A DNA stretch of 64,000 nucleotides from SAR202 cluster bacterium Io17-Chloro-G4 (GTDB lineage: Bacteria > Chloroflexota > Dehalococcoidia > Lucifugimonadales > UBA3495). Numbering within the stretch: the first letter of the stretch is position 1; each line of letters begins with the position of its first letter. Location: NCBI GenBank assembly GCA_002816455.1, contig MUCR01000018.1, positions 1,855 to 65,854 of the forward strand, in the 5' to 3' direction. Below are positions 26-31,354 of this stretch, piece after piece. Both the position numbers and the translations under genes were made by a program. The notes under the pieces were generated by a model. It was not told the DNA's origin. It made no database searches and saw only the letters and a program-made list of their open reading frames with translations.

Positions 26-949
26 CTAGCGGCCTACCGTCTTAATGGAATCACAACCCTCAAGCGCATCTCCGTCTTTGGTTAGTCCGCTGAGGCAGGC
101 CTCGGTATCCCCTTGCTGGATTCCGGTGTCTTGAGTGCGGAAATGGAGGACCATATCGGTGTCCCCATCTTTGTCCACATCCTCCAAATGGGCCTTGTTG
201 TGGGCTTCTGACGCCCCGTCCGGACCAAACAGTACGGTGGAAGCATCAATTGTGGTAGCGTCGAAATCGTCCATGGTGAGGACGGCTACCGGTATGACAC
301 CCTTGCCCCTGGGATTAATCGGATTGGTGTTGCTGCCCGGCTTAACATCGATATCTGCTTCAATAGATCCGCCGCCATCTGGCTCGTACTCCACCACGAA
401 GCCCTTGACGAGGTTGGTCACATCGTTCCAGTGACCGTCCCACACAAAAGACTCCTCTGGCGTAGACTGAGGCCCGCTGTGCCAGAAGTGTGCGTAGTCT
501 TCCCCACAGTTCGGACCGCATGAGTTGTTCGGCTCGCCCGACGACCAATTCGTGTAACTCCAGGCCTCACCCGTTACCCACTCCCATCCTCCATCGGCGG
601 TTCCATCCCCGCCCCCGGGCTGGTGGGCACCTATGTAGGCGCCTCCTTCGAATACACCATCAGCGTTTTCTATTGCTGTCGGCAAATGCTCCACGATAAA
701 AGCGGTCTCAGCTGCGGACGTGATGGTGGCCAAATGCCCACCCATCGCTTCAGCAGCGAGTTTCGCGTCAGTCCAGGTCAGCTTGTCATCTCCTCCCAAG
801 TACTCGTAGCAATGGCCAGTCGCATCGTCGCAGACGGGAATCGCGGTACTATGAGATGCTCCGGCGCTGCCTTCTAAAAATAGTGCCATCACTGCGACGA
901 TTGCCAGCAAAAGAGCGAAATACCTAGGCCTCGGGATGATTCCGGTCAT
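26..949 (-). CDS. secreted C-type lectin domain protein with C-terminal Asp-rich (Ca-binding-like) domain
   Basis: ORF 26..985. AAGGAGG just upstream of the ATG at 949 favours this internal start. Hydrophobic signal YFALLLAIVAVMALFLEGSAGA. CTLD hallmarks WTDAKLAAEAMGGHLATI, GEPNN (EPN) and HWNDV (WND). C-terminal DVDKDGDTD loop. Confidence 0.8.
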   Translation of the reverse strand: MTGIIPRPRYFALLLAIVAVMALFLEGSAGASHSTAIPVCDDATGHCYEYLGGDDKLTWTDAKLAAEAMGGHLATITSAAETAFIVEHLPTAIENADGVFEGGAYIGAHQPGGGDGTADGGWEWVTGEAWSYTNWSSGEPNNSCGPNCGEDYAHFWHSGPQSTPEESFVWDGHWNDVTNLVKGFVVEYEPDGGGSIEADIDVKPGSNTNPINPRGKGVIPVAVLTMDDFDATTIDASTVLFGPDGASEAHNKAHLEDVDKDGDTDMVLHFRTQDTGIQQGDTEACLSGLTKDGDALEGCDSIKTVGR

Positions 950-1131
950 AATTCCTCCTTCGATTTGGACGGAGCCTCTAAACACCGTGCCCCTGAGAAT
1001 CCTCCATAGCCAACCTGTTCGTTTTCATTATGTGTGATAAATTTGCCGCACACGAGTGGTAGAGTTCTATATTTATCCTCTAGAACATACGATCTTGATT
1101 TCGGGGAGGACGGGGAAACTAACAGTCGATA

Positions 1132-1268
1132 ACTGGACAGAAAGTGGAGGGATTCGTAACTACTCAAGCACAGCGTTGAGGTAAGGATGCATGCAATCCG
1201 CGTGCTCTCCCGCTGCGCTACACCCCGGCTGGGAATCCTGTGTGGATTTTGCGGAGTGAGTGTTCAAC
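1132..1268 (-). repeat. conserved 137-nt upstream element, copy A (promoter-like 5' end plus tRNA-like block), 5' of the lectin gene
   Basis: Aligns end to end with 2393..2530 at roughly two-thirds identity. Perfectly shared blocks: ACTGGACAGAAA, GTGCTCTCCCG, GGATGCA, TTTGCGG. The minus strand reads GGGGUGUAGCGCAGCGGGAGAGCAC...GUUACGAAUCCCUCCAC. Confidence 0.6.
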
Positions 1269-1358
1269 CGAGGGGCGCAACGTTCGTAGCGGGATAGAGG
1301 CTACAAATCCCCAACAGGACTAGTTCAACTAAATTGCCGTTCTCGGCGGGCAATTCCC

Positions 1359-2339
1359 TCACTGGATGTTGGTCAGGTCCACTTTGTTCAAGCCAGTCAA
1401 ATCGCCTAAACCGGCAGGCAATGCCGTCATCTGGTTATTTAGCAGTTTCAGCCAAGTCAACTCAGCCAAGTTGGCAATTTCGGCTGGCAATGCTGTCAGT
1501 TGGTTGTTAGTCAGGTCCAGGGTGGTAATTGCGCTCAGGTCGCCGATCTCAGGCGGCAACGCCGTGAGCCGATTGGAAGGAAGATCGAGCCTGGTTAAGC
1601 TGGCCAATTTGCCTATCTCTGGTGGCAACTCGGTCAACTGGTTGTGTTGCAAGTCCAGATTTATCAAGCTGGTCAGATTTCCTATCTCTAGGGGCAACAC
1701 CGACAGCCGGTTGTGACCCAAGCTCAGATGGGTGAGGGTGGTGAGGTGTCCGATCTCGGGAGGCAGTGACCTCAGCTGATTGCGTGACAGGCCCAGACTT
1801 GTCAGGCTGCCGAGGTTTCCTATCTCTGGTGGCAACTCGGTCAATTGGTTGTTAGCGAGGTGCAGCCTGGTCAAATTGCCTAGCACGCCTATTTCTGAAG
1901 GCAATACGGTCAACTGGTTGTTGGTCAGGAGCAGAATGGTCAGTCCGGTCAGGTTGCTAAGCTCCGGAGGCAATGCCGTCAACTGGTTGCGTTGCAGTTC
2001 CAACTCGGTCAGACCGGTCAGTTTACCTATCTCGGGGGGCAACTCCGTTAACTGGTTGTTGCTCAGGTCTAGCCTGGTGAAGCCAGTCAGGTTGCCTATC
2101 TCGGGCGGTAATGCCGACAACCGGTTGTATGACAGGTCCAACTTAGTCAAGTTCGTCAAGTTCCCGATGTCTGGGGGCAATGCCGTCAACTGGTTGTAAC
2201 GCAAGTCGAGTTCGGTCAGGCTGGTCAAGTCGCCTATCTCAGCGGGCAAGGTCTCCAAGTCTGCCCCGCCCAGCGATAGAATAGTCGTCCCATTACTCCG
2301 AGCTCTGATTATTATTTCGGCGAGTCTATCTTGGTCCAT
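1359..2339 (-). CDS. leucine-rich repeat (LRR) protein, about 13 tandem 23-aa repeats
   Basis: 326-aa ORF with repeating LxxLxxLxLxxNQLTxLPPEIGxL units (69-bp DNA period). No signal peptide or other domain is visible. Confidence 0.9.
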   Translation of the reverse strand: MDQDRLAEIIIRARSNGTTILSLGGADLETLPAEIGDLTSLTELDLRYNQLTALPPDIGNLTNLTKLDLSYNRLSALPPEIGNLTGFTRLDLSNNQLTELPPEIGKLTGLTELELQRNQLTALPPELSNLTGLTILLLTNNQLTVLPSEIGVLGNLTRLHLANNQLTELPPEIGNLGSLTSLGLSRNQLRSLPPEIGHLTTLTHLSLGHNRLSVLPLEIGNLTSLINLDLQHNQLTELPPEIGKLASLTRLDLPSNRLTALPPEIGDLSAITTLDLTNNQLTALPAEIANLAELTWLKLLNNQMTALPAGLGDLTGLNKVDLTNIQ

Positions 2340-2392
2340 ATCGGATCCTATTTCTTTGAACTTATAATCGCAAAGATTTTTAACCGCGTCTG

Positions 2393-2530
2393 ACTGGACA
2401 GAAAATGGAGTGGTGCGTAGCTACGGAGGCGCAGCGTGTAAGCCGGGATGCACGCAAACTAGGTGCTCTCCCGATGAGCAGCGCCCCCAGCGAAAAACCA
2501 GTGTAGAAATTTGCGGTGTGGGTTGTCAAC
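2393..2530 (-). repeat. conserved upstream element, copy B, 54 nt 5' of the LRR gene start
   Basis: Homologous to 1132..1268. The minus strand begins GTTGACA-N18-TACACT (sigma70-like). It then reads GGGGGCGCUGCUCAUCGGGAGAGCACCUAGUUUGCGUGCAUCC, which resembles the 5' half of tRNA-Ala(UGC). Confidence 0.6.
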
Positions 2531-2601
2531 AAAAATAAGGCCATTCTCCCGAGTCAAAGGGGCACCAAAGCAAGCTGTGGGCCATTTTGACTGACTCTGG
2601 A

Positions 2602-2898
2602 TTACGCCGCTGCGCCCTCACTGAGAAACGCGGCCGTAGTTTCCTGGTCCATTAAGGGATGGATCTCAAACTCCGCTGGCACCAATTCGAGCCAATGGCT
2701 TAACAGCCGATGCAATTCTTCAATCGACTCTACATCGAAAAGCGCTATGGCGCCCCGGCCAACTTTGGCGTACAACGTCCGGTCTTTTATCACCCCCTGT
2801 TCCATTAGAGGCCGCGCCCATTCCCACAACCGTTGTCGATTCGACCGTGCCTCCGAAGGGCGAGTTGGCGCTGGATTAGTGATTACCAGAAAGAGCAT
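2602..2898 (-). CDS. small muconolactone-isomerase-like / DUF3303-like protein
   Basis: GGAGGA lies 6 nt upstream of the ATG at 2898; the ORF track's longer 5' extension has no support. The pattern MLFLVI...ALFDVESIEELHRLL...PAEFEIHPL is typical of the small dimeric alpha/beta-barrel family. Confidence 0.6.
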   Translation of the reverse strand: MLFLVITNPAPTRPSEARSNRQRLWEWARPLMEQGVIKDRTLYAKVGRGAIALFDVESIEELHRLLSHWLELVPAEFEIHPLMDQETTAAFLSEGAAA

Positions 2899-3005
2899 AT
2901 TATCCTCCAATATCGTTCCATTCAGTCGCCGGGGGGTTCTGGAACCGCGTTGGATATAAATACCAAATACGGAGCTAGGTAAGGACAGAGCTGAAGGAGT
3001 GATAC

Positions 3006-3048
3006 ATGAAAATAGGAGGGCCAGCTCAGCTAGCCCTCCCATTTTCAT
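3006..3048. terminator. 16-bp hairpin, probable terminator after the rhodanese gene
   Basis: ATGAAAATAGGAGGGC-N11-GCCCTCCCATTTTCAT (15/16 complementary). A GC core is flanked by U-rich segments on either strand. Confidence 0.6.
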
Positions 3049-3152
3049 GTACATGGCCTGAGTGACGGGTGAAAATTGAATTAGTTAGGTCAACCGACGC
3101 CAAGATGGACTTTCCAACCGTCATTCCGCCATTCGAATAGCTTACTCTTCAC

Positions 3153-3545
3153 CTATGCCTGGGTCGGCAACCCAGCTTCCTTCCAACCCTTCATACCGCC
3201 GTCTATGTAGGTTACGTTTGTGAATCCCATCTCTTTGAGCGCTTGTGCCCCAAGCGAAGCCATGTGGCCAAGCCCTCAAGTCGTGATGATTTTTCGTGAA
3301 CGGTCTTGTAATCTTGGGTTGCGCAAGGGCTCGGGTACCTCCAAGTCTGCGCGTATGGGGAGAGTGCCCAGAGAAATCATCAAAACGTCAGGGGCCCTAT
3401 CGGTCTCTGGTACAGATTCCGCATCTCGGACTTCAATGAGAATAGCTTCCTCGTCATCTTGAAGGCTTTGGTAGGCCTCCATAGGGGTAACTCCGGTCAC
3501 TTCGGCTTTCGCCTCATTCACCATGTCCATCCAGCTTTTTGCCAT
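3153..3545 (-). CDS. single-domain rhodanese (sulfurtransferase) with in-frame TGA at the catalytic Cys position; candidate selenoprotein
   Basis: GAGGAGG lies 8 nt upstream of the ATG at 3545. The frame reads through TGA 3276..3278 into GLGHMASLGAQALKEMGFTNVTYIDGGMKGWKEAGLPTQA and ends at TAG 3153..3155. Total length is about 130 aa, typical for a rhodanese. Confidence 0.65.
3240..3256 (-). promoter_or_regulatory. SECIS-like hairpin downstream of the rhodanese UGA
   Basis: CGCUUG-GGGCA-CAAGCG starts 19 nt 3' of the UGA and has a G-rich apical loop. Confidence 0.45.
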
Positions 3546-3697
3546 GGCCAATTTCCTCCTCACCGGGGATCTCCCGGACCATATCGACTCACCTGAGCGC
3601 GTTTAGCCCAGGAATGCCAAGAACTATAGAGCGGTAATATGCCCTCGTCAACCAGAGGATCGGGTTGATGACAACGGGTCGAGATCTTGGGCTCATG

Positions 3698-4237
3698 TCA
3701 TTTGTTGTCATCAGTTGGAGACGCCTCCAACGACAACCTCCAGAGGAGTGGGGCCAAATCCACAGTTTTATCTCCAGGCAGGTGCAACGAGAATTTACTG
3801 GAATTTTTCGACACATTTAATACCCACAAAAACTGGCCGGGATTTGCTAAGGTGTCGATTATTGGAGCGAACGCTATTAGGTCTCTGCGCCCGTTTTCAT
3901 CGATGACCGACACTTGGTCCAACCATGTTTGGTTTATGGACGTTAGGCCCGTAGAACCCGCACCGCTGATCACCAGCAACATATCCTGTGGACTTGAAGC
4001 CAATATTTCGTCGTAGAAGAATTGCTTTTTGGCGAAACTGAACGTCACTTCCACCCCATCAACACACAACGGAGCGCCGATGCCCGGGATGGGTGTTGAG
4101 GTTGGTGAGGGTATAGATGTCGCCGCAAGCGTAGGTAGAGGGGTCACCGAAGGCGCCGCAGTGGTCGGTGCGGGAGTTGGTGCCGCACTAGCTCCGCAAG
4201 CCGCCAACGCGAATGCCAAGAAGATGCCGAGGAGCAA
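3698..4237 (-). CDS. lipoprotein with Thr/Pro-rich linker, function unknown
   Basis: TTG start with a TGA stop 8 codons upstream in frame. Lipobox LAAC in MLLGIFLAFALAACG, followed by a PT-rich linker. No strong SD is visible. Confidence 0.6.
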   Translation of the reverse strand: MLLGIFLAFALAACGASAAPTPAPTTAAPSVTPLPTLAATSIPSPTSTPIPGIGAPLCVDGVEVTFSFAKKQFFYDEILASSPQDMLLVISGAGSTGLTSINQTWLDQVSVIDENGRRDLIAFAPIIDTLANPGQFLWVLNVSKNSSKFSLHLPGDKTVDLAPLLWRLSLEASPTDDNK

Positions 4238-4318
4238 GGTACCGTTTGGAGGGCCGAGGTAGTCATGATTGCGGGTCCTTCACTCGCACCAAATACAGCG
4301 CATGGAGAACTTCTCCAA

Positions 4319-4756
4319 CTAGCCCTTAGCTTCAGCAATAAAGACCGGGATGGTTCGGTCAGTTTTATCTTGGTATTCTTGATAAGGCGGGTATGCCGCC
4401 ACCGCAATATCCCAGAGCCGTTGTCTCTCGCCGGCATCTACCACTTCCCGTACCCGCATCCAGTAGACTTTAGCCTCGTCCCGAATCTCCACTTCCGGGT
4501 CCGACTTTAGATTGTGGTACCACAGGGGATGTTCCGGCGCTCCACCTCTAGATGCCACTAGTATGTAGTTGTTTCCGTCCACTGCTCTCATTAACGGTGT
4601 CTTGCGGATGGCCCCTGTCTTCCGGCCTCGATTGGTCACAATTATGACCGGCAATCCTGTATCCCTCAAAGTCAAACCTTGAGTTCCTCCGCTCCCTTCA
4701 TACAGTTCAACTTGGTCTGCCACCCATTGCGAGGGGCTGGGAATATATTCGCTCAT
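4319..4756 (-). CDS. deazaflavin (F420)-dependent nitroreductase/quinone reductase family protein (DDN-like)
   Basis: GGAGGA RBS. Motifs VIIVTNRGRKTGAIRKTPL, GGAPEHPLWYHNL and IPVFIAE are typical of PF04075-type proteins. Confidence 0.85.
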   Translation of the reverse strand: MSEYIPSPSQWVADQVELYEGSGGTQGLTLRDTGLPVIIVTNRGRKTGAIRKTPLMRAVDGNNYILVASRGGAPEHPLWYHNLKSDPEVEIRDEAKVYWMRVREVVDAGERQRLWDIAVAAYPPYQEYQDKTDRTIPVFIAEAKG

Positions 4757-4878
4757 GGTTCCTCCTAGTTGGGGTTAGTATGGCTACTATACCAAAACAA
4801 GCTGATGCGATGCTCAAGCGGACATACCACTAAATCAAGAGTTGGTCTTCCAAAAGTGGGCTTAAATCTAGTCCGCGT

Positions 4879-7800
4879 CTAATCGGACAGAAAGCGGGGC
4901 AGCTTGAAAGGCTTTTCCTCAGGAGGAGGCGGAGGAGTGACCGAAACGGAGCGCACCCCTGTGGCAGGAGTATCCGCTGGTTTTCGATCAGTTGCAGGCT
5001 GGGACCTGGGGGCTGGTTTTTGGGATCCAGCATTTTTGGATCTGCCCAAAAGACGCTTCAATAGTTGGCCGATACCCTGGCCTACACCCTGGCCGTTACT
5101 TTTAGCCTTTTCTTTTGCTCCGTTATCCGCCTGGCTCCGCTCGTCTGAGGTGGCGATCTCCGGCGCACTCCTCCTTCGGGAAGCCCTCGGCTGGATTTCT
5201 ATTTCAGCTTTTGCTTTCTCTGCCGCTTCGGCCCGTGCTCCAATCTGCTCCACTTCTCGAGCTCGGTCCGAGAGTTGCTGTTCGAGTTCGGTTGTCTGTT
5301 GGGAGGCGTCTTCTAGTTGTTTAGTAAGCTGGAAATACAGGGTGGTCAGTCTCTTCCTATCTTTCTCCACCGTTTCAGACCTGGTCTGTAAGCCTTGGAC
5401 CGCTTGAGACTGGTCCGCAACCTGCCGCTCCAGGTGCGCTATCCGTTGGCTGCTTTCTTCAATCTGAGCGTGAAGCGCTGCCGCTCTTTCTTCTGCTTCT
5501 TCCTTCTGCCTCTGGAGATTGGTAATCTCTTGAGTGCGGGCCGAAAGCTGCCGATTCAAATCTGCTGTCTGTTGGCGGCCTTCTTCCAACTGGCCGCTTA
5601 AGACTTCTTTTTCCTTATCAGATGCTTCGGCCTGAGATTGGTGGTCTTGAATTTCTTGGCTGCGTGTCGAGAGTTCTTGTTCCAGTTGGGATACCCTTTG
5701 ACGCCCCTCTTCCAGTTGGGTATCCAGATTTTCCGACCTTTCTTCGGCCGCCAAAGCTCTCATTTCGAGGCTTTGAAACTCCTGACTTTGCTCCGATAGC
5801 CGCTGCTCCAGTTCCGTCACCGTCTGCTGTGCTTGTTCTAACTGGCTGGTGAGACTGAAATACTGGCTGGTCAGGTTGTCCCGCTCTCTCTCCGAAGCGA
5901 CAGTACGGGCCTCTAAGCTTTGAACGTCCTGAGCGCGGGCTGCTAGCTGCTGTTCCAACTCGGTGATACGCCTGCTGGCTTCTTCCGATTGGGCGCCCAA
6001 GGATTCGGCTTTTTCTTCAGCGGCGTTGGAACGGAGTTGGAGTTGCTTGACTTCTTGGTCACGGGCAGCCAGTTGCTGGTCTAATTCCGCGCTACGCTGC
6101 CGGGAAACTTCCAGTAATGCGCCCAAGTCGTCTCTGCTTTGCTCGGCGTCCAGTGCGCGTGCTTCAAGGTCTTGTACCTGTTGGCTGCGGTCCGCGAGTT
6201 GTTGGTCCAACTCGGTGACTCGTCGCCGGGTCGCGTCCAACTGGGTGTTTAGGTTGTCCCGTTCTTGCTGAACGCCTTCGGCACGGAGCTCGAGGTTTTG
6301 GATTTCTTCACTCCGCGCTGCGAGTTGTTGGTCCAATTCAGCCGCACGCTGGCGACCTTCATCTAATTGGCGGTTTAGGTCGTCCCTGTCTTTGTCGCTG
6401 GCCACTGCCCGTAATTCATGGCCCTGCACTTCCTGGATTCGAGCGATCAACTGTTGGTCTAGCTCGGACGCCCTCTGCCGCCCTTCTTCTATTTGCCGGG
6501 TCAGGTTATCCCGGTCTTTTTCTGCGGCTACGGCCCGAAGTTCCAGGGCTTGAATCTCCGTGACTCGGGTGGAGAGTTGTTGGTTCAGGTCGGTAGCCCG
6601 CTGAACTGTCTCCTCCAATTGGATGCTCAGTGTTTCCGAGCCTTCTTCCGCAGCAGATGCCCGTCGCTATAAAACTTGAATTTCCTGAATTCGAGCCGAA
6701 AGTTGCTCGTCCAGTTCCGTGGCACGCTGACGTCTTTCAGCAAGCTGGCTGTTGAGATTGTCCCGGTCCTTCTCAGAGGCTACGGCATGCAGTTCATGCT
6801 CCCGGATTTCTTGGCTTCGGGTCAGGAGTTGCTGGTCCAACTCAGTGGCGCTTTGGCGTCCTTCTTCCAACTGGACGGCGAGATTATCCCGGTCCCTCTC
6901 CGCCGCAACAACGCGCCGTTCCAGTCCTTGAATTTCCTGGGACTGGTTGGAACTCTGTTGGCCTATCTCTGTGGACCGTTGCAGCGCGTCCTCTAGTTGG
7001 GCGCTGAGAGCCTCAGAGGCTTCTTCCGCAGCAGATGCCCGCTGTTCGAGACCTTGGATTTCTTGAATGCAGACGAGAGCTGGTCGTCTAGCTCGGTTGC
7101 CCGTTGGCGTCTCTCGGAAAGTTGACTATTTAGGTTATCCCTGTCCTTCTCGGCGGCCACCGCCTGTAGCTCAAGGTCCCTGATTTCTTGATTGCGGACG
7201 GCAAGTTGCTGATCCAAGTCTTTGAGACGCTGGCCTCCGTCCTCAACCTGGCCGGAGAGACTGTCTTTGTCCTTTTCGGCGCCGGCGGCGCGTCGCTCCA
7301 GGCTCTGGAGTTCTTGGTTTCGGTCCGAGAGTTGTTGCTCCAGCCCGGCCAGCCGCTGTCGGCCTTCTTCCAATTGGGCGCCCAAATTTTCCGACGAGTC
7401 TTCCGCCGCACTGGCCCGCAGTTCAAGCCCCTGCACTTCTTGAGTTCGTTCCGAGAGTTGCTGGTCTAACTCGGTTGCTCTCTGGCGCCTTTCATCAAGC
7501 TGGCTGCTCAGATTATCCCGGTCTTTCTCGACGGCTACCGCATCCAGTTCTAGCGTTTGTATTCGCTGACCGCGTTCGGCTAACTGTTGCTCCAACGTCC
7601 CGATGCGTTGCCGGCCTTCCTCGGCAACGTTGTCCTTATCCCTCTCGGCCGCGACCGCTCGCTTATCCAAATCCTGCACTTCTTGCGTGCGTTCTGAGAG
7701 TTGCTGGTCAAGTTCGGCCACCCGTTGGCGTCTTTCGGAGAGTTGGCTGTTCAAGTTCTCTTGGTCTCTGCCATGAGCCACCGCTCGTAGCTCGTGCTCC

Positions 7801-7946
7801 CGAATCTGCTGGGTGAGTTCCAATATCTGTTGACCCAACTGTTCTTCGCGCTGGCGAAGAGCGTCCAGTTGACTTCTAAGGACTTCCGGGTCTTCGTGTT
7901 GCTCTGTCAAAGTGGTTCCCTGACGACCTGACGCATTAGCGGTCAT
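4879..7946 (-). pseudogene. giant 42-aa-repeat coiled-coil protein, interrupted by one in-frame TAG (6667..6669) and one 1-nt frameshift (about 7068..7073)
   Basis: Three track ORFs (6993..7946, 6667..6870, 4879..6618) carry the same ELDQQLSxRxQEIQxLELRAVAAEKDRDNLxxQLEEGRQRAx repeat. ORFs 2 and 3 share a frame across the TAG. ORF 1 rejoins if one base is restored in ..CTCTCGTCT^GCATTCAAGAAATCCAA.. Confidence 0.75.
5210..7840 (-). repeat. about 21 tandem coding repeats of 126 bp (42 aa, six heptads), with occasional 49-aa variants
   Basis: I counted 42 residues between successive (E/D)L(D/N/E)QQL motifs in several units. Confidence 0.8.
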
Positions 7947-7963
7947 CGAATACTTCGCATACT

Positions 7964-7977
7964 CAGGGTATACCCTG
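7964..7977. promoter_or_regulatory. perfect 14-bp palindrome CAGGGTATACCCTG upstream of the coiled-coil gene (possible operator)
   Basis: Lies 18 to 31 nt upstream of the ATG at 7946, next to a CATAAT-like box. No SD is present. Confidence 0.35.
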
Positions 7978-8310
7978 GCAATTATTATGGTAAAAGCTTG
8001 GCGTTTACGCCCGTGAGCTAATCTTCAGGAGCTTCAAATGGAATTGGGACTCCCTTTGTCAGCGAGGCACGACTGAAGGTATGCGAACCAACCCAGCCAA
8101 TAATGTCGATATTCCTCCACTGACACCCAAAGTAAGGGTAGGATTCGAGCAATGTGGTTGTCAACGAGTGTGACTAGTACCCTATCCCGAGTTTGACGCA
8201 GACAATGCGTCGCCGAGCGTAGTTGCTGGAGAAGGAGCATAAATTAGTAACGCCTCGGACATCACGTTCGGGGCGTTACTAGTCTCTCGGTCCCGCTAAG
8301 TCGCTCGTGA

Positions 8311-9138
8311 TTAGCCCAGGCTTCCGAGCAACCGCCCAAAGCCTGGTATCGGCTCGGTCCAACCCACTTCCCGCAAGGCCATCCAAATGGTCGCCTGGTT
8401 CACTGTGATTACCGTCTTTCCCAGCTTTTGCTCCAGTTCCTCCGCAGCGTCCAGGGCTCGCCAAGCAGTGCCAGGCAAGAACACTGTATCCGCGTCGTCC
8501 TTCACCACAGTGGGCACAAAATCGGCTATTACCTGAGGGTCCTCGGCTTCGATGTCCAGGGGATTCATAGAATCCTGCAGCCAAGGTTCGCCGTCGGCAC
8601 TGAGCACGGTGAATCCCGCTTCTTCCAAGAATGGCTTTAACCGGTTTCGCAGGTGGAAGTTGCGGTAGGGGCCAGCGATGCTTATCCTTTGTGACCCCAT
8701 GTGCTTCATTGCTTCAACGCAGGAGTTCACCGCCGTGATTGCAGGCACACCGCTGGCGGAAGACATGGTTTCGGATATTTGCCGGTCGAAAGCCAAGTTG
8801 CCTTTGTGCCACGTCCCTGATGTGCAGGCATATACCAAGATGTCCGGCTCGATGTTGGCGAGGGACCGGGCGCCTCGTTCCACATCCTCGTTCATCTTGT
8901 TCGCGCTGAACCCAAACAGGGCCCAATCGACTTCGTTGGCTTCATCGCTGGTCAGGGAAATCCGGTGCCCCTCGTCCTCAGCCCCGTTTCCTGATTGGGG
9001 CATCTGTCCGCCCCACCGGCCGTTCCACATGCGTTCGAAATGCACTGTGATTTCTTTGGGAATCACCCGGTAAAAGTCGGGCTCCACAACTGGGTTGGTC
9101 GCTGGCAGCAGAGCGCCGATGCGCTTGGTCTTGGCCAT
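8311..9138 (-). CDS. Asp/Glu racemase superfamily protein (maleate isomerase / arylmalonate decarboxylase-like)
   Basis: Motifs IGALLPATNPVVEPDF, VYACTSGTW, ISIAGPY, FLPGTAWRAL and VITVNQATIW. TAGGAG RBS. Confidence 0.8.
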   Translation of the reverse strand: MAKTKRIGALLPATNPVVEPDFYRVIPKEITVHFERMWNGRWGGQMPQSGNGAEDEGHRISLTSDEANEVDWALFGFSANKMNEDVERGARSLANIEPDILVYACTSGTWHKGNLAFDRQISETMSSASGVPAITAVNSCVEAMKHMGSQRISIAGPYRNFHLRNRLKPFLEEAGFTVLSADGEPWLQDSMNPLDIEAEDPQVIADFVPTVVKDDADTVFLPGTAWRALDAAEELEQKLGKTVITVNQATIWMALREVGWTEPIPGFGRLLGSLG

Positions 9139-9294
9139 GTTGAAGACTCCTAGGATTGCTATTTATCACTATTTTTAGCTGCGATCGGGTAAAGGTTCGG
9201 AAGAACATGTCATTCAGGAAGATAACACGATACTAGAGGAGCGGCTACTATATCAGAGGCCAGCGAAATTAGCTCCTCGCTCAGGAAAGACCCA

Positions 9295-9696
9295 TTAATT
9301 CTCGCTGATAACCAAGTTGGCGTTCTCAACAAACCGGGCGTCCAGCGCCGGAATGATGGTCACCGAGTCGGTTCTGATTTCAGATCCTGAGGCCCAAACA
9401 GTAGCAGTGCCTACGCTGTCTCCGACTACCACGTTGATGGTGTAGCTGCCGCTGGCTTTGGGAGTCCAGGTGACCTTCGTGCCGCTGACCTGAGTCCGGT
9501 CCAGTTCCCAGCCGATGGACGGTGGGGTTAATGATGGAGAGTTGACGGAAACGGTCCCAGCACCAGTGGCGTCGACAGAACCGGCCTTGGCTTCCGTGGC
9601 TAGCAGAGTAAATATCCCGATTAAAAGAGCTATTGCGAAAATCCAAGGAATCGGGTTGAAGACTGACCGCTTGGCTGTACGACTCTGAGAAACCAT
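9295..9696 (-). CDS. small signal-anchored/secreted protein, unknown function
   Basis: N-terminal TM/signal IPWIFAIALLIGIFTLLATEAKA followed by a beta-rich Ser/Thr/Val sequence. G-rich RBS. Confidence 0.6.
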   Translation of the reverse strand: MVSQSRTAKRSVFNPIPWIFAIALLIGIFTLLATEAKAGSVDATGAGTVSVNSPSLTPPSIGWELDRTQVSGTKVTWTPKASGSYTINVVVGDSVGTATVWASGSEIRTDSVTIIPALDARFVENANLVISEN

Positions 9697-9842
9697 CCTG
9701 CCCCCCTGTTCTCCCCTCGGTTATCTGATGTACCTAGGTTACCCAAGGGAGGGCAGGGGTTCCGTGACATTATTCAATTATTAAATGTGACGTTGCTCAC
9801 ATGTTTGAGACCCATTCGCCAGGATGGGGTCTTAAAATCCCC

Positions 9843-9930
9843 CGTAGGGGCAGACCCATGTGTCTGCCCCGGTATTGGGCGCACACACTGGTGCGCCATG
9901 CATATTATTACAACGGGTGCGCCCCTACGT
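9843..9930. repeat. nested GC-rich palindromic hairpins (GTAGGGGC...GCCCCTAC type)
   Basis: GGGGCAGAC-CCATGT-GTCTGCCCC (9847..9870) and GGCGCAC-ACACTG-GTGCGCC (9878..9897). The outer CGTAGGGG (9844..9851) pairs with CCCCTACG (9922..9929). Confidence 0.6.
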
Positions 9931-9996
9931 ACACATAATATGTGGCGTTATCAAACAGAATCGGTATAAAAGAAATTTGGCACCGGCAGGAGCGCG

Positions 9997-10845
9997 TCAG
10001 CGCCCTTTAAATGATGGCGCCCGCTTTTCCAAAAAAGCCAACCGGGCCTCTTCGGCGTCTTCTGAACCGCCCAGGATCCCACCGGCGTTGGAGGTTAGCA
10101 CTGTGGTGGTTTCCAAAGAGCCGTCCATAGCGGCGCGCATGATGCGCTTGCTTACCCACTGCACCATGGGCGGTGTCCGCATGATCCGGTCGCACAAATC
10201 TCGAGTGGTCTGCTCCAATTCCTCGGCGGAAACTAGGTAGTTGAGCAGTCCCCAATCGTAGGCCCGTTGGGCGTCGAGATGCCCAGTGTAGGCGAACTCC
10301 AGGGCACGACCCAGGCCCGCCATCTTTGGCAGGTAGTAGCTTCCGCCATTTTCGAAAATCTGTCCCAGTTGCTGATAGCCGATGAAGCGGGTGTTTTCGC
10401 AACCCAGGCGAATGTCGCAGTGTAGGGCCATGTCCATGCCGGACCCCACGGCGGGCCCGTTAATCATGGCGATGGTGGGCTTTCGCACCTGAGAAATGTC
10501 CCGGTGGAGCTTGGTAAATCCGTGGAAGAAGTGCTCCCTAGCTGCATCCGGTCCTTCTTCGGAACCTCGGTTGCCAATGAAATTCTCGCCGGTGACGGAT
10601 GGGTCGTTGTCCCGCCGCATGTCTGCCCCGGAGCAGAATCCCCGGCCCACGCCGGTTAAGACGATAACCCGTATGTTGGGGTCGTCGTCCCCAGCCCGCA
10701 TGTACTCGCCGACTTTGGCCACAGTGCCGTTTTCCTGGGAGTTGCCAACCAAAGCATTCATCCTCTCGGGGCGGTTGAATTTTATCCAGAGAATGCCGTT
10801 GTCCTCGGGCTCATAAAGTAGGTAGTCCACCAATTTAGGCGCCAT
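9997..10845 (-). CDS. enoyl-CoA hydratase/isomerase (crotonase) family protein
   Basis: Motifs VIVLTGVGRGFCSGADM and KPTIAMINGPAVGSGMDMALHCDIR. AAGGAG RBS. Confidence 0.9.
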   Translation of the reverse strand: MAPKLVDYLLYEPEDNGILWIKFNRPERMNALVGNSQENGTVAKVGEYMRAGDDDPNIRVIVLTGVGRGFCSGADMRRDNDPSVTGENFIGNRGSEEGPDAAREHFFHGFTKLHRDISQVRKPTIAMINGPAVGSGMDMALHCDIRLGCENTRFIGYQQLGQIFENGGSYYLPKMAGLGRALEFAYTGHLDAQRAYDWGLLNYLVSAEELEQTTRDLCDRIMRTPPMVQWVSKRIMRAAMDGSLETTTVLTSNAGGILGGSEDAEEARLAFLEKRAPSFKGR

Positions 10846-11110
10846 TTTTGCTCTCCTTGGGGATCATCGGATTAACGATATTACCAAGGATTTTATACCT
10901 CATCCGTCCACAGGCACTACTTGGGTCAGCTTTGGGCCTGTACCCAATCCCACGGTGTCGTGGATCAAGCCTAAAACCCAAATCAGATTCTGCTTGGCAT
11001 TCGGGCTCCAAGAATCGACACGGCTAGCATCAAGGTTTATCATATCTGCTGACCTCCGAGTAAACCGAATAAACCAACCCAGATTACTAGGGAAACAAAA
11101 GGAGACACCG

Positions 11111-12307
11111 ATGCGAGAAGTTGCGATAGTTTCACCTGTGCGCACCGCCGTGGGTAGCTTTGGGGGCACCTTGCGCGGCGTTTCCGCAGCCGACTTGGCC
11201 ACCACTGTCATCACTGAAACTCTGGACCGCAGCGGCCTGGACCCGGCCAAGGTTGACGACGTTATTCTGGGTCACGGCTATCCCAGCGGCGAGAACCCGG
11301 CAATAGGCCGCCTGGCTGGACTTAAAGCCGGCCTTCCGATCGAGGTGCCCGGTTACCAGCTGGACCGTCGCTGCTCCTCCGGCCTCCAAGCAATCCTCAA
11401 CGCCTCTATGCTGGTGCAGACTGAAAATGCCGACGTGGTAATCGCCGGCGGAGTGGAGAGCATGAGCAATGCCGAATATTATGTAAACGAGTCCCGCTGG
11501 GGCGCTCGGTTCGGCTCGATGACCCTGCACGACCGTTTAGCCAGGGCCAGGGAAACCATCTCCCCCGAAGAGCGGTTCGGCTTCATTTCCGGCATGATCG
11601 AAACGGCCGAGAACCTGGCCAAACAGTACGAGATTTCCAGAGAAGAGCAGGACGAATACTCCTTGCGCAGCCACCAGCGGGCTGTGGCCGCCGTTGAAGG
11701 CGGTAATTTCGATTCCCAAGTGGTGGGCGTGCCGGTGCCACAACGCCGAGGAGACCCGATCCCCTTTGATAAAGACGAAGGTCCCCGGGGCGACACCACA
11801 TTGGAAGCTTTGGGCAAATTGCGTCCCATTTCGACAGACGGCACCGTAACGGCCGGCAACGCCAGCAGCCAGAATGACGCAGCTTCGGTCTGCCTGGTCG
11901 TTGCTGCGGACAAGCTGGAAGAATTGGGGCTAACGGCCATGGGTTATCTCCGTGGTTGGGCCGTCACCGGTTGCCATCCGGCCTACATGGGCATCGGCCC
12001 CGTATCGGCGGTAGCCAAAGTAATGGACAAAGTTGGCATGTCTCTGGGGGACATGGACTTGATCGAGTTAAACGAAGCTTTCGCCGCACAAGTATTGGCC
12101 GTCTTGCGAGAGTGGAAGCTGCCCAATGAGGACAATTTGAACGTCAACGGCTCTGGCATTTCCCTGGGCCATCCCATCGCCGCCACAGGCGCTCGCATTC
12201 TGACAACCCTGCTCCACGAAATGGAGCGCCGGGATGTCCAGTTCGGCTTGGAAACCATGTGCGTTGGAGGCGGCCAAGGCGTGGCCGCCCTGTTCGAGAG
12301 AAAGTAG
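11111..12307 (+). CDS. acetyl-CoA acetyltransferase (thiolase)
   Basis: AAAGGAG RBS before the ATG at 11111. Motifs MREVAIVSPVRTAVGSFGG, QLDRRCSSGLQAI, NGSGISLGHPIAATG and CVGGGQG. Confidence 0.9.
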   Translation: MREVAIVSPVRTAVGSFGGTLRGVSAADLATTVITETLDRSGLDPAKVDDVILGHGYPSGENPAIGRLAGLKAGLPIEVPGYQLDRRCSSGLQAILNASMLVQTENADVVIAGGVESMSNAEYYVNESRWGARFGSMTLHDRLARARETISPEERFGFISGMIETAENLAKQYEISREEQDEYSLRSHQRAVAAVEGGNFDSQVVGVPVPQRRGDPIPFDKDEGPRGDTTLEALGKLRPISTDGTVTAGNASSQNDAASVCLVVAADKLEELGLTAMGYLRGWAVTGCHPAYMGIGPVSAVAKVMDKVGMSLGDMDLIELNEAFAAQVLAVLREWKLPNEDNLNVNGSGISLGHPIAATGARILTTLLHEMERRDVQFGLETMCVGGGQGVAALFERK

Positions 12308-12410
12308 GCCCTGGCGGGCCTGCCCCGTTTTCGGGTCCGCAAAAGAGCGCCACATTCAACGTATTAACTGAAAGTTCTAACACAGGCAAATAAATCTATG
12401 GGAGGATCAC

Positions 12411-13355
12411 ATGCCCGAAGTTTTTGGCAGCGGAGAATTTACTTATACATTTGTTGATGGCTGGGCCAAGTTGCCCGGCGGAGTGACGTTCAAGGAGTGC
12501 CCAGGAGTGGCGGTGGACTCCAGAGATAACGTCTATGTTCTAACACGGGGTGACCATCCTATCATCGTCCTAGACAAAGACGGCAACTACATCCGGTCCT
12601 TCGGTCAGGGGCTTTTTAGCGATGACCGCACCCACGGATTATACATCGGCCATGATGACTCGCTGATGGTTGCCGACGACGGCATTCATACAATTCAGAA
12701 GTTTAACTCTGAGGGCGAGAAGACCATGGAAATCGGTGAGCGCAACCACCCAGCGCCCCGGTGGAGTGGACAGCCCTTTAACCGACCCACGTCGGCCGCC
12801 ATCATGCCCAGTAACGGCGACGTTTATGTCTCCGACGGCTACGGCAACTCCCGCATCCACGTCTACACCGGCTCGGGAGAGTACAAGTTCTCTTGGGGCA
12901 GCCCGGGAATCGACGCCGGCCAGTTCATCCGGCCTCACAACATCGCCGTTGACGCCGATGACAAAGTCTACGTGGTGGACCGGGAAGCCCACAGGATTCA
13001 GATTTTCGACCCCAAAGGCAACTTCATCACCATGTGGAACAACATTCACCGGCCCGACTCCATGGTTCTCTGGAAGGACCACATTTACGTGGGCGAGTTG
13101 AACGGCATGGGCGGCGTGGACGATGCGCCTGGGCTGGGACACCGGGTAACTGTTTACGACCTCAACGGCAATCGGGTCTGCATGTTCGGCTCCGATGAAG
13201 AAGGAGAAGGCCCGGGGCAGTTCATTGCGCCCCACGGCATCGCCGTCGACTCAAAAGGCGACATTTACGTGTCCGAAGTTTCCTACACGATCCGCGGCCG
13301 CCACTTGGACCCGCCTCGGGAGATGCGCAGCTTGTCCAAGTACGCAGCGAAGTAA
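12411..13355 (+). CDS. NHL-repeat six-bladed beta-propeller protein (peptidyl-hydroxyglycine lyase-like)
   Basis: Repeated GQFxxPHxIAVDxxxxVYVxD motifs and SDGYGNSRIHVY. GGGAGGA RBS. Confidence 0.85.
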   Translation: MPEVFGSGEFTYTFVDGWAKLPGGVTFKECPGVAVDSRDNVYVLTRGDHPIIVLDKDGNYIRSFGQGLFSDDRTHGLYIGHDDSLMVADDGIHTIQKFNSEGEKTMEIGERNHPAPRWSGQPFNRPTSAAIMPSNGDVYVSDGYGNSRIHVYTGSGEYKFSWGSPGIDAGQFIRPHNIAVDADDKVYVVDREAHRIQIFDPKGNFITMWNNIHRPDSMVLWKDHIYVGELNGMGGVDDAPGLGHRVTVYDLNGNRVCMFGSDEEGEGPGQFIAPHGIAVDSKGDIYVSEVSYTIRGRHLDPPREMRSLSKYAAK

Positions 13356-13368
13356 ACGACGACTAAGT

Positions 13369-13460
13369 CCCCCTTAATCCCCCTTTACAAAGGGGGAATT
13401 ACCATTCCGCCAGTTATATTGGGAGCCATTAGCCCCCCTTTGTAAAGGGGGGTTGGGGGA
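13369..13460. repeat. pair of inverted about 30-nt repeats, each containing a C5-6TTT(A/G)(C/T)AAAG5-6 hairpin
   Basis: CCCCCTTTACAAAGGGGG (13379..13396) and CCCCCCTTTGTAAAGGGGGG (13433..13452). The flanks CCCCCTTAATCC and GGTTGGGGGA are also inverted. Confidence 0.6.
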
Positions 13461-13495
13461 TTTCGGACCCTTAGACCTAACGGAGGAAATCCCTT

Positions 13496-14554
13496 TTGCA
13501 AGACCTTGGCGAGACAACGACTGTCCAATGGGACTCAGCCTTAGAGGCCATCGAGCGGTGCTATGAACTGGGCTGGACCGACGGCCTGCCCGTGGTGCCG
13601 CCCACGGTGGACCTAGTTAACCAATTCATAAACGCCGCAAAAAGGGCCTCTTCAGAAGTTGTTGGGCAAATTCCCGAGCGCCGACGGGACATCACCGTGG
13701 GAAAAGTAGCAGCCAACGCAGCGATGGCCGGTTGTTTGCCGGAATACATGCCGGTGTTGCTGGCGGCGGTGGAAGCGATGCTGGACCCCGTGTTCAACCT
13801 GGTAGGGCCATCCTCTAGCATGGGCGGTTCGGCCATACTCTCCATCGTCAATGGCCCCGTCGCCAAGGAGATCGGCCTGAATTCCCGGAACAATCTCTTC
13901 GGTCCGGGCAACCGGGCCAACGCCACCATTGGCCGGGCGGTGCGCTTAGTTCTGATGAACGCCTGCGCCGCTGTTCCCGGTCTGTATGACCGCAGCGTTA
14001 TCGGCCATCCCGGCAAGTACACCTACTGCATTGCCGAAGCGGATACAGAAACCCACTGGACACCCCTTCACGTGGAACGGGGCTACTCCCTGGACCAGAG
14101 CACAGTGACCGTGTTTGCTGGCGAGAGCCCGAGGCAAATCCGGGCGGTGGGCAAGCCCGAAGCGATTCTCTACGCCATCGCCGACGTGAGCTCGACCTTG
14201 GGCACCAACATGTCCACTTCGGGCTCCGTGGGAGACACGGACGTTGGAATTCGGCAAGGGCAAATCGTAGTGACCATAGCCGGGAACTCGGACCTTTGGA
14301 AGGACTGGACCAAGGAGCAAGTCCGAGGCTACTTGCACGCCAACATCCGGCGCTCCGTGGCCGACCTGAAAAACGCTCAAGTGCTGGCCGGGGATGTGGA
14401 ACCGGAAGACGCTGAAAAATTTCTGCCTCTGGTGCCTGAACCGGAAGACATACTTCTGGTCTTTGCTGGTGGCGAGGAGTCCAACATGTCCTCGGTTATA
14501 CCCAGTTGGGGTCCTAAAGTCGCTTGCACTGCCGTTACCAAACAGGTACGCTAA
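13496..14554 (+). CDS. conserved hypothetical protein (GWTDGLPVVPPT motif), partner of the UGSC gene
   Basis: TTG start with GGAGGA 8 nt upstream. 352 aa with coding-like composition. I recognise no domain. Confidence 0.75.
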   Translation: MQDLGETTTVQWDSALEAIERCYELGWTDGLPVVPPTVDLVNQFINAAKRASSEVVGQIPERRRDITVGKVAANAAMAGCLPEYMPVLLAAVEAMLDPVFNLVGPSSSMGGSAILSIVNGPVAKEIGLNSRNNLFGPGNRANATIGRAVRLVLMNACAAVPGLYDRSVIGHPGKYTYCIAEADTETHWTPLHVERGYSLDQSTVTVFAGESPRQIRAVGKPEAILYAIADVSSTLGTNMSTSGSVGDTDVGIRQGQIVVTIAGNSDLWKDWTKEQVRGYLHANIRRSVADLKNAQVLAGDVEPEDAEKFLPLVPEPEDILLVFAGGEESNMSSVIPSWGPKVACTAVTKQVR

Positions 14555-14620
14555 ATAGGCTATCACCCACTGGCCGCAACGAATGACATGGTCAGCCCAA
14601 CCGGATTTTTAGGAGAGAAC

Positions 14621-15163
14621 ATGGCACAGGGAACAGACCACGAGTTAGTCAACCCTACTACCCAAGCCATCGTGGCGCCTTTCGACGGCGCTCCCCGTTT
14701 GCCTTCTTTGGCCGGCACCAGGCTGGGCATCATAGACGACAGTAAGCGGAACGCCGACGTGCTGTTGGAGGAGCTGGCCGAGTTGCTCCGCACGTGGTAC
14801 GAGATCTCCGAAGTGAGGTGGCACCGCAAGCCCAGCGCCTCCAAGCCAGCCGACCCAGAGGCAATTAGGGAACTGGTGGAGAATTGCGACTCGGTGATTG
14901 TTGCGGTGGGTGATTGAGGGTCCTGCAGTGCGTGCAGTGTGCACGACGGAATCCACGTTGAGAACGCAGGCATCCCTTCCGCCACCATCTGCACGGACCG
15001 GTTCGTTCCCACAGCCGCCGGTATGGCCAAGATGTGGGGAGCGCCCGACTACCCGACGATCTTCACGGCCCATCCCATCGAAAACCTGAGCCGGGAGCAG
15101 CTCCGGGCTCGGGCCGAGGAGTTGGCCCCCCAAGTTGTTCAGGTATTGATCGGCGACGTCTAA
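14621..15163 (+). CDS. UGSC-family (seleno)protein with in-frame TGA at 14915..14917
   Basis: AGGAGAG RBS before the ATG at 14621. Track ORFs 14588..14917 and 14939..15163 share a frame. The junction reads VIVAVGD-U-GSCSACSVHDGIHVENAG. Confidence 0.75.
14931..14945 (+). promoter_or_regulatory. SECIS-like hairpin downstream of the UGSC UGA
   Basis: CGUGCA-GUG-UGCACG starts 13 nt after the UGA. An alternative is CUGCA-GUGCG-UGCAG at 14923..14937. Confidence 0.4.
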
Positions 15164-15185
15164 CTAGCATTTTTACCGGGATTTA

Positions 15186-15244
15186 GCCACGGAGATACAG
15201 AGCTTTTTTTAAATTAGCTCCGTGTTCTCTGTGCCTCTGTGGCA
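15186..15244. terminator. imperfect hairpin between convergent genes, member of the CRCAGAGGCRCAGAG repeat family
   Basis: GCCACGGAGATACAGAGC ... TCTCTGTGCCTCTGTGGC (14/18 complementary) with a T7 run in the loop. Confidence 0.5.
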
Positions 15245-15253
15245 ACCTCGTCC

Positions 15254-15421
15254 TTAAGTCCGTATTTGAGGCGGCAGCAGGTTGGGAATGGCGTCCTCTA
15301 TGGGGTAGGTTTCGTCGCACTTACCGCAGAATAAGGAGCCGGTAATAACTTCCTCACCCTCTTCTGCCTCGACCTTCAGTTCCAGGTCCCCCTTGCACAT
15401 CGGACAAGCCAGGATTTCCAT
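15254..15421 (-). CDS. Trm112-family small zinc-ribbon protein
   Basis: MEILACPMCKGDL...LFCGKCDETYPIEDAIPNLL. The start at M22 of the track ORF is chosen from typical family length; the upstream extension is not excluded. Confidence 0.7.
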   Translation of the reverse strand: MEILACPMCKGDLELKVEAEEGEEVITGSLFCGKCDETYPIEDAIPNLLPPQIRT

Positions 15422-15489
15422 TAAGCTTTTCTTCAAGTTTCCACCTGTTCTGTTAGCTTTCATCCACAAGCGTTCAGGTATCAACCTTA

Positions 15490-15969
15490 TTAGCCTAGGC
15501 TGTCCTCGAACAGGGCGCTTAGGACATCAGCCAACCCGAATACGACCAAGCCGATTATCAACACCGCAGCGGTACCCGTCAAGCTGGACCTTGCTTTCCC
15601 GAGCCATCCGCTTGAGGTGGGAAGGTCTTCCGGGTAACTCCGCGGGTTCAGAAACCTGACGATGTAGAACATGTAGCAGGCCAAGACGATTTTTACCACC
15701 AACACAGCGACATAGGCTAAAGTTATGTTATCTTCCGTCAGCCTGGCTACCGAGAGAATAACGCCGGTTAGTAGCAAAACGCTAATGGCCGTGTTGACCA
15801 GACCCCGGTACTCCACGCCCATGAACCGGCCTGTCTGCTCCGGCGCCGGCGCCTGCCGGTTGGCAGGCCGCCAGACCATCAGGTAAAAAATACCGCCGCC
15901 GACCCATGCGACAGCGCCAATGGCATGGCCCCAGCGAATAGCAACCAAAATCCAGTCTAAGGGGTTCAT
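15490..15969 (-). CDS. integral membrane protein (4 TM, CopD/DUF-like), unknown function
   Basis: Four hydrophobic segments, WGHAIGAVAWVGGGIFY, TAGGAAA RBS. Confidence 0.7.
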   Translation of the reverse strand: MNPLDWILVAIRWGHAIGAVAWVGGGIFYLMVWRPANRQAPAPEQTGRFMGVEYRGLVNTAISVLLLTGVILSVARLTEDNITLAYVAVLVVKIVLACYMFYIVRFLNPRSYPEDLPTSSGWLGKARSSLTGTAAVLIIGLVVFGLADVLSALFEDSLG

Positions 15970-16023
15970 AATTTCCTAGTCATCTTTTTTTCGGTTCGTC
16001 CCGTTGAGCGACTTTCAATGACT

Positions 16024-16173: not shown

Positions 16174-16261
16174 TCTGGCTGATGTACAGTTAGGTTAGCT
16201 CAGGGTGAACGGCTAAAGAGCAATCGTGTTTGGTGGGCTCAACCTAAGCGCTCCTCACATC

Positions 16262-16328: not shown

Positions 16329-16368
16329 AAGAGTGCCAGCAGAGTATTCGAGCCTATCCGGCTCAGCG

Positions 16369-31219: not shown

Positions 31220-31229
31220 AAAAGCCTCG

Positions 31230-31289: not shown

Positions 31290-31354
31290 AAGGCGGGGGT
31301 GGAATCTAACTGGAATCTACCTGTTATAGGCTGTGCAGACAAAAAGGATCGGGA

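Follow-up and report, generated by a model that had tools for sequence, protein, structure and literature searches.

A disrupted coiled-coil gene that is probably being inactivated in parallel among strains of a marine SAR202 bacterium

The window analysed here is a stretch of 64,000 nucleotides from SAR202 cluster bacterium Io17-Chloro-G4 (contig MUCR01000018.1). On its minus strand, at 4879..7946, lies a long coiled-coil gene which is disrupted by an in-frame TAG and a frameshift of one nucleotide. Three minus-strand open reading frames (ORFs) were confirmed in this region, 6993..7946 (317 aa), 6667..6870 (67 aa) and 4879..6618 (579 aa). In a three-frame translation, the repeat frame is open from 7068 to its own stop, TAG 4879..4881, with TAG 6667..6669 as the sole break, and the upstream ORF departs from the repeat frame at 7070..7075. 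The middle segment at 6670..7068 (-) is still in the repeat frame (IQEIQGLEQRAS ... IQEIQVL) and has TTG 6870 as its earliest start. As the repeat-coding stretch 6871..7068 contains no start codon, one disrupted gene is favoured over three genes, and three independent genes at 4879..7946 appear unlikely. The reconstruction gave a protein of 1022 aa from ATG 7946; gene callers and homologues prefer the start TTG 7910 ('LTEQHEDPEV', ~1010 aa). Four parts were distinguished in this protein, all encoded on the minus strand. A unique, non-repeat N-terminus (MTANASGRQGTTLTEQHEDPEVLRSQLDALRQREE) is encoded at 7842..7946 and is kept in the relatives P0012, P0063 and L014. It is followed by a coiled-coil rod of ~880 residues at 5206..7841, delimited by periodicity and heptad analysis. 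A short amphipathic helix (VGQGIGQLLKRLLGR, residues 955-969) is encoded at 5041..5085 within a disordered linker and was recognised by hydrophobic moment, AF2 model and conservation. The last part is a basic, Pro-rich disordered tail at 4882..5040, which holds an invariant TGVRSVS(V/I/L)TPP and ends in the motif (F/Y)KLPRFLS(D/K) at 4882..4905, frame-shifted in L010. A sequence-only reading of this DNA had proposed one long gene whose six-heptad repeats lie between a unique N-terminus and a Pro-rich basic tail, and this was confirmed by the reconstruction and by the 42-aa periodicity.

The rod is built from ~20 repeat units of 42 aa. BLOSUM self-score and identity analysis gave self-identities of 43%, 39% and 42% at offsets of 42, 84 and 126 aa, compared with ~15% elsewhere, and every secondary peak of periodicity was a multiple of 7 residues. 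This regularity is well beyond what chance would give. A weak higher-order period of three units (126 aa / 378 bp) was also found. One unit has only 39 aa, and two are extended by 7 residues through a '(S/T)(Q/L)YF' stutter. The first stutter, 'SQYFSL' at 5851..5868 (-), adds the 7 residues to the 42-aa register and occurs as (N)VTSLYF in all relatives; the second, 'TLYFQL' at 5326..5343 (-), is situated ~45 residues before the rod end. Each unit holds six heptads with a/d positions 2/6, 9/13, 16/20, 23/27, 30/34 and 37/41. The columns 2/6, 13, 16/20, 23, 30/34 and 41 are occupied by L, I, V or A in 73-100% of units, and three core positions of the unit are polar (R9, R27 and G/R37). The heptad periodicity expected of the repeat frame was borne out by the hydrophobic Fourier spectrum, which has its maximum at 3.5 residues (power 11.9 against <3.5 elsewhere). 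The long-range heptad periodicity of hydrophobic residues and the hydrophobic a/d positions that mark the coiled-coil class are thus both present. The array itself is old and diverged. Identity between units is just 50-71% at the DNA level and Tandem Repeats Finder reported nothing on the array, by which the near-identical 126-bp tandem array supposed earlier is ruled out.

Neither a transmembrane nor a signal segment was found in the reconstructed protein, as had been predicted: the Kyte-Doolittle mean over 19 residues reaches a maximum of 0.33 and the N-terminus is polar. An AF2 model of the last 154 residues, built from an alignment of three homologues, showed the rod end as a confident helix (pLDDT 85-92), followed by a disordered linker, a short helix exactly at IGQLLKRLLG and a non-regular Pro-rich tail. 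The hydrophobic moment of this C-terminal helix (0.72) is the maximum of the whole protein, the rod reaching at most 0.67, and the helix is kept in P0062, P0001 and P0002. On the basis of the model, helix 955-969 is a candidate for binding a membrane or a partner. Among orthologues of 60-80% identity, no part of the tail is better conserved than its terminal KLPRFLS motif. In a coiled coil the rise is ~0.148 nm per residue, so the rod would be an estimated ~130 nm long provided that the coiled coil is continuous. By analogy with proteins of similar architecture, the product may be a cytoplasmic scaffold or filament which is tethered at its C-terminal end to a partner or, probably, to the membrane.

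Compared with the intact allele CTCTCGGTCCGCATT, one nucleotide (one G of GG) is deleted in the first lesion, at 7070..7075 (-), and 7071 carries C->T. Residue 292 is the last one in frame, and the tail of the upstream ORF runs out of frame from 7071 to TAG 6993..6995. The second lesion, at 6667..6669 (-), is the in-frame TAG at codon 427, for which the alternative allele is GAG (Glu), with G->T at 6669. Alleles were obtained from other public assemblies, in which the same locus was retrieved by exact look-up of two flanking proteins. Haplotype A is represented by the ENA assembly MIZU16-1_SAMN04325108 scaffold_48 and the Logan assembly of SRR2981515, which are identical in sequence, and haplotype B by the ENA and Logan assemblies of SRR5007147 (PRJNA352798, a Mediterranean water-column series). 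In haplotype A the 1-nt deletion of the window is present and 6669 belongs to GAG, the called genes being of 305/317 and 663 aa. In haplotype B the TAG is present and the frame is intact, giving called genes of 414 and 579 aa; the frameshift site reads CTC TCG GTC CGC ATT (L-S-V-R-I; …LSVRIQEIQ…). These sister strains are 99.6-99.9% identical, an intact counterpart is known for each lesion, and the alleles observed suffice to write out the ancestral intact protein. The guess of the sequence-only reading that GAG had become TAG was therefore exact, as GAG is seen in another assembly. Its restoration of one base to give QLSSRIQ was roughly right, but the true allele is the one above and C->T at 7071 comes in addition. 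It had also named the TAG and the 1-nt frameshift as the only lesions of the window sequence. That holds, with the qualification that the window combines two haplotypes, each of which has a single lesion, as a mosaic.

As a control, 21 kb of housekeeping genes around carA/carB were compared between the window and four other assemblies. They contained 45 single-nucleotide polymorphisms (SNPs), no indel and no change of a stop codon, so frame-breaking differences are not general to these assemblies. Both lesions are genuine DNA variants which segregate among closely related strains. Every observed version bears at least one lesion, and by its translation no observed version appears able to yield the full-length protein.

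The mosaic nature of the window was seen in the variable sites. Over 16.8 kb (window 311..17138, compared with L003/L004), 67 sites vary among haplotype A, haplotype B and the window, and at these the window is of A-type at 48, of B-type at 19 and private at none. The allele type never switches between neighbouring sites less than 30 bp apart (0/16), while past ~70-130 bp it switches in 3/8, 5/14 and 5/19 cases, against 0.41 expected for unlinked sites. Such switching at a scale of ~100 bp leads to the suspicion of a consensus of co-occurring A-like and B-like strains. The window sequence is most likely a consensus of a strain mixture, a heavily recombined haplotype being the alternative. The tree ((window, A), B) was rejected, as the window has no private alleles against 19 in A (p ~4e-6) and as that tree would also demand an exact reversion of TAG to GAG or an exact repair of the frameshift. 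The two lesions, which lie 406 bp apart, need not stand in cis on one molecule, and a double-broken molecule may not exist.

A neighbouring gene is affected by the same mosaicism. A secreted C-type-lectin-like gene at 26..949 (-), with a signal/anchor (FALLLAIVAVMALFL) and Pfam Lectin_C, is intact in the window; in haplotype A it carries K68*, and in haplotype B codon 33 has lost one nucleotide (window position 887). The window holds the intact allele at both sites, and the mosaic thus 'repairs' a gene which is broken in both real haplotypes. Haplotype B also differs by a 25-nt insertion (GGCGCACCCGTGTGTATATATGTAG) at ~9898, absent from the window and from haplotype A; the site is intergenic, with a hypothetical gene at 9295..9696 on one side and an enoyl-CoA hydratase gene on the other. 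Annotation should join the three ORFs into a single gene marked as disrupted, and should treat the window as a strain-mixture mosaic.

Substitutions in the gene were compared within and between species. Between haplotypes A and B, the coiled-coil gene shows 12.5 non-synonymous (Nd) and 2.5 synonymous (Sd) differences, with omega ~1.5 (Nei-Gojobori), the stop and the indel not included. The neutral expectation for this gene is 76.5% non-synonymous, with which the A-B differences are compatible. Neighbour and control genes, with 24 non-synonymous (N) to 32 synonymous (S) changes, are unlike it (Fisher p 0.003-0.006). Divergence between species gave low values. For the last 262 codons, compared with L101, an orthologue of 80% identity whose synteny is conserved (downstream F420H2 quinone reductase), omega is 0.18 (rod 0.13, tail 0.27) at a synonymous divergence (dS) of 0.69. 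For the pair L011/L012 of a second subfamily, omega is 0.21-0.24 at dS 0.21, including the part downstream of the frameshift in L012. The McDonald-Kreitman-type contrast gave p 0.002-0.013. The gene was under purifying selection between species until recently and now evolves at an approximately neutral rate within the population. Disabling lesions in a formerly constrained ORF and relaxed constraint (from 15 changes, a small sample) are both present, as in a recent pseudogene. Three origins had been left open for the lesions in the sequence-only reading. Pseudogenisation is the one that was upheld, with real lesions, lost constraint and broken relatives; phase variation and assembly error fell away on the evidence discussed below. 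For population genetics, the locus is a clean natural case of a gene that was under strong purifying selection and now drifts in a neutral-like way, while several independent knock-outs segregate at the same time.

Relatives were sought exhaustively with HMMER among 1.84 billion cluster representatives, and only 12 matches fell below 1e-10. Those that are credible relatives are fragments, none longer than 317 aa, and the other matches are generic coiled coils of 20-30% identity. The relatives have in common an LTEQHEDPE... N-terminus, the stutter (N)VTSLYF and a G(F/Q)(I/L)(R/K)(K/R)LLG-type helix. Closer ones also have TGVRSVSVTPP and the terminal (F/Y)KLPRFLS(D/K), and distant members end otherwise, in ...EPGSNE or in a globular domain. 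A scan with peptide patterns found no relatives in 185,579 GTDB species genomes, JGI metagenomes or IMG/VR, and an exact 46-mer had no match in the JGI metagenomes. The alignment of nine sequences was too diverged to supply search patterns. These proteins form a new and very narrow coiled-coil family with a clear anatomy, consisting of the 42-residue unit, the YF stutters, the helix and the KLPRFLS end. In the P0011 subfamily (L011 57..848 and L012 frame 1), the basic tail is replaced by a conserved globular C-terminal domain of ~110 aa (…SRSYDERVTIFAGSGDLLGTARMVGQAN…NGTPPGVA) which has no match in Pfam.

Disruption recurs among these relatives at other positions. L008 has an in-frame TGA (ELNQE*STRMQEI) where L009, from the same species in another sample, reads L; L009 in turn is frameshifted by one additional A within an A-run that lies 30 nt upstream of that site. 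L010 has two frame changes, one of them just ahead of the conserved YKLPRFLSK end, L012 is frameshifted relative to L011, and in L015 the conserved tail motif lies in another frame. In L013/L014, two in-frame stops and an insertion of the IS256 family stand inside the rod. The ends of P0012, P0014, P0015 and P0063 look out-of-frame or truncated, as judged from the protein ends alone. Only L011 and L101, both partial, are without a lesion, and wherever the gene is fully covered (window, A, B, L014) it is broken. A search for intact orthologues, which the sequence-only reading had proposed, thus yielded no intact full-length allele, although these two lesion-free partial copies were recovered. 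P0063, an 80-aa protein on a 5.8-kb contig, has the N-terminus joined directly to a repeat like the window unit at residue 411, followed by an early stop; this hints at variation of repeat number through unequal recombination and at further truncation. On L013/L014 (1..16591), transposases of IS256, IS5 and IS3/rve type and split genes for ADH_N/ADH_zinc_N and AhpC were observed, and their sequence suggests genome-wide decay in that lineage.

On balance, the locus is best explained as a lineage-restricted coiled-coil scaffold gene that recently lost its constraint and is being inactivated in parallel, an account which is held to be probable but by no means certain. According to it, a long-constrained gene would have encoded a coiled-coil rod of ~1020 aa with an amphipathic helix and a basic tail ending in KLPRFLS. 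Selective constraint would have been lost recently in this population, the TAG and the 1-nt deletion would have arisen in different strains, each alone breaking the ORF, and the window would combine both as a mosaic of strain types. What was observed is the anatomy, the reality and polymorphism of the lesions, the change from purifying to neutral-like evolution and the occurrence of parallel lesions among relatives. That the knock-outs are neutral rather than favoured is the likelier of the two, with a modest degree of confidence.

Several points weigh against this account. The cellular role is proposed by analogy from architecture. Each lesion rests on consensus sequences, though both read sets were assembled by two pipelines, and if the window co-assembles the source samples of haplotypes A and B, each lesion is backed by a single read set. 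An omega of ~1.5 from 15 changes cannot tell neutrality from diversifying selection. A and B share no lesion, yet the gene seems unconstrained since their split, so an unseen shared defect (for example a regulatory one) or a change of environment is needed. The genome of L013/L014 is ridden with insertion sequences (IS) and other split genes, and that case is therefore not specific to the family. The searched protein collections miss even the 579- and 663-aa ORFs of these contigs, which makes the missing intact allele weak evidence.

Among the other explanations, the most serious is that the gene is functional in the population and that its loss-of-function alleles are kept at appreciable frequency by selection, on/off or diversifying, with the intact alleles unseen; pressure from phages, grazers or the niche might be the driver. 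It is distinctly less probable than parallel decay, but several observations are in its favour. A different lesion was found per haplotype in two species (A against B, L008 against L009), with the intact allele present in the other haplotype at each lesion site; the non-synonymous excess gives omega ~1.5; the lectin gene nearby shows the same pattern; and strong long-term purifying selection indicates that the protein matters. Nevertheless, an intact full-length allele was seen nowhere, omega is not significantly above 1, and a protein that is cytoplasmic by its sequence is unlikely to be a direct target of phages or grazers. A mechanism for reversible switching is missing as well. The phase-variable switching raised in the sequence-only reading would call for a simple-sequence repeat (SSR) or an invertible or cassette donor, and neither was found: there is no simple-sequence tract at the frameshift site CTCTCGGTCC (GG->G) or at the TAG site, and no donor copy of the local 13-mer of either allele was found elsewhere in the array. 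The absence of donor copies likewise led to the rejection of gene conversion within the gene as the origin of the variants. A bolder form of the idea, somewhat less probable again, would see an undescribed scaffold family of few deep-ocean Dehalococcoidia under recurrent, possibly adaptive knock-out. If true, mutation would be the switch that turns off a conditionally costly structure, which the population as a whole would maintain; such a 'mutational on/off' polymorphism would concern a structural gene of the cytoplasm and not a surface antigen. Should the knock-outs prove to be selected, the locus would help to find out what rods of this kind cost deep-ocean cells or expose in them.

The split gene could also work as separate polypeptides which co-assemble, its C-terminal part being re-initiated at TTG 6870 or 6618. 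Long coiled coils are modular, an in-frame TTG stands 48 nt downstream of the TAG and another ~200 nt downstream of the frameshift, and gene callers predict the 579- and 663-aa products. But neither TTG is preceded by a Shine-Dalgarno-like motif (nor, it is true, is the true start), N-terminal fragments would be without the conserved C-terminal helix and motif, and the neutral-like N/S extends along the whole gene, the downstream part included; such a division of labour is improbable. Still less credit is given to sequencing, assembly or polishing artefacts in a gene that is really intact. In favour of artefacts are the repeats of the gene, the evident mosaic consensus of the window and the fact that many relatives are known only from short contigs of low coverage. 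Yet at 50-71% identity, and with no array found by Tandem Repeats Finder, the units are too diverged to collapse. For each read set, two assemblers gave the same lesion, which the window shows as well. One of the two lesions consists of a G->T substitution at a non-repetitive 13-mer, and the 21-kb control has no indels. A mosaic assembly mixes alleles and cannot create a TAG or an indel absent from the reads. The assembly or polishing error considered in the sequence-only reading is thereby set aside. Least credible of all is programmed recoding, in which a -1 frameshift at 7070..7075 and read-through of the TAG, or its decoding as pyrrolysine, would give the full-length protein. A -1 shift would indeed restore the repeat frame, and the TAG is flanked by normal repeat sequence. 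However, no X_XXY_YYZ heptamer occurs in the frame overlap 6993..7128, the only two lying ~310 nt upstream at 7389 and 7386. TAG is an ordinary stop of 13/38 large ORFs of the window and of the coiled-coil gene itself, which implies the standard genetic code. Both sites are polymorphic with sense or in-frame alleles, GAG in a sister strain speaking against reassignment of TAG, and the lesions of relatives are at unrelated positions. Rfam and tRNA scans of the window found nothing, hence no suppressor or pyrrolysine tRNA is evident there.

The host is an uncultured marine Dehalococcoidia (Chloroflexota) bacterium without a close reference genome, and the gene appears to be chromosomal. Its CarB is at most 78% identical to those of Dehalococcoidia reference metagenome-assembled genomes, and the window carries a carA-carB-pyrC operon and tandem CoA-transferase paralogues. 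An origin in a defence system, phage or plasmid was rejected in view of the weak coiled-coil matches in PADLOC and PHROGs, the housekeeping context and the absence of relatives in IMG/VR. No promoter-like site was found, and terminator-like sites did not exceed the shuffled expectation. Near the lectin gene, a leucine-rich-repeat protein at 1359..2339 (-) with ~9 LRR_8 stretches and an NHL-repeat protein at 12411..13355 (+) make up, together with it, a cluster of 'eukaryote-like' repeat proteins. Of the family-III CoA-transferase paralogues, four (407, 407, 408 and 406 aa) stand in tandem at 42962..48094 (+) and a fifth copy at 20737..22065 (-), a local expansion of paralogues. Directly downstream of carB, at window ~30767..31767 (from L097 15343..16343), genes for a HicB-like antitoxin and a PIN-domain protein form a probable toxin-antitoxin pair.

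In comparison with known systems, the gene product appears to belong to no known family. Pfam, NCBIfam, PADLOC, PHROGs and PDB gave only sub-threshold coiled-coil matches (CENP-F zipper, tropomyosin, SMC/Rad50/LmuB/JetC arms, BST2), and the literature searched contained no paper that connects coiled-coil cytoskeletal proteins with SAR202 or Chloroflexi, nor any description of such a protein in the phylum. Scy and FilP of Streptomyces and crescentin of Caulobacter are cytoplasmic, long coiled-coil rods with short non-helical ends and stutters. The protein described here is similarly an almost pure coiled-coil rod with stutters and no enzymatic domain, of a size in the Scy range. The likeness to Scy, FilP and DivIVA suggested by the sequence-only reading holds for architecture; no family model matched. 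Crescentin is set apart by Pfam PF19220 Rod_CreS, which scored 14.9 bits against a cut-off of 100. No Scy or FilP family was among the Pfam and NCBIfam matches, and the repeat here is a strict 42 residues (6x7), whereas that of Scy has 51. No DivIVA domain was matched in the reconstructed protein by Pfam at E<=0.1. Unlike all three rods, it carries an amphipathic helix near its C-terminus, followed by a basic tail that bears KLPRFLS, is confined to few marine Dehalococcoidia and is mostly broken.

The best statistical matches in NCBIfam and PADLOC were to SMC/Rad50/MukB-like proteins, including LmuB and JetC, in the arm regions only. The scores of 119 (SMC_prok_B), 82.5 and 62.8 bits lie far below the curated cut-offs of 567.35, 729.4 and 1087 bits, and those in PADLOC were 30-32 bits. 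The coiled-coil protein has no Walker A/B head, hinge or globular domain, and these matches are due to composition and heptads alone. Streptococcal M and M-like proteins share with it a coiled-coil rod of tandem repeats, a repeat number which varies among relatives and an excess of non-synonymous polymorphism, but a signal peptide, an LPXTG/wall anchor and a transmembrane segment are absent here and the repeats are old and diverged. The terminal KLPRFLS also resembles the core of the FtsZ C-terminal peptide, (I/L)PxFL(R/K); the motif stands at the extreme C-terminus after a disordered linker, and the likeness covers a five-residue core only. Ordinary recent pseudogenes are matched in the single nonsense change and 1-nt indel in a frame otherwise intact, the near-neutral N/S and the lesions that differ between strains. 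What differs is that most of the members sampled in this tiny family have decayed independently in the same way, and that in two species sister strains hold mutually exclusive lesions.

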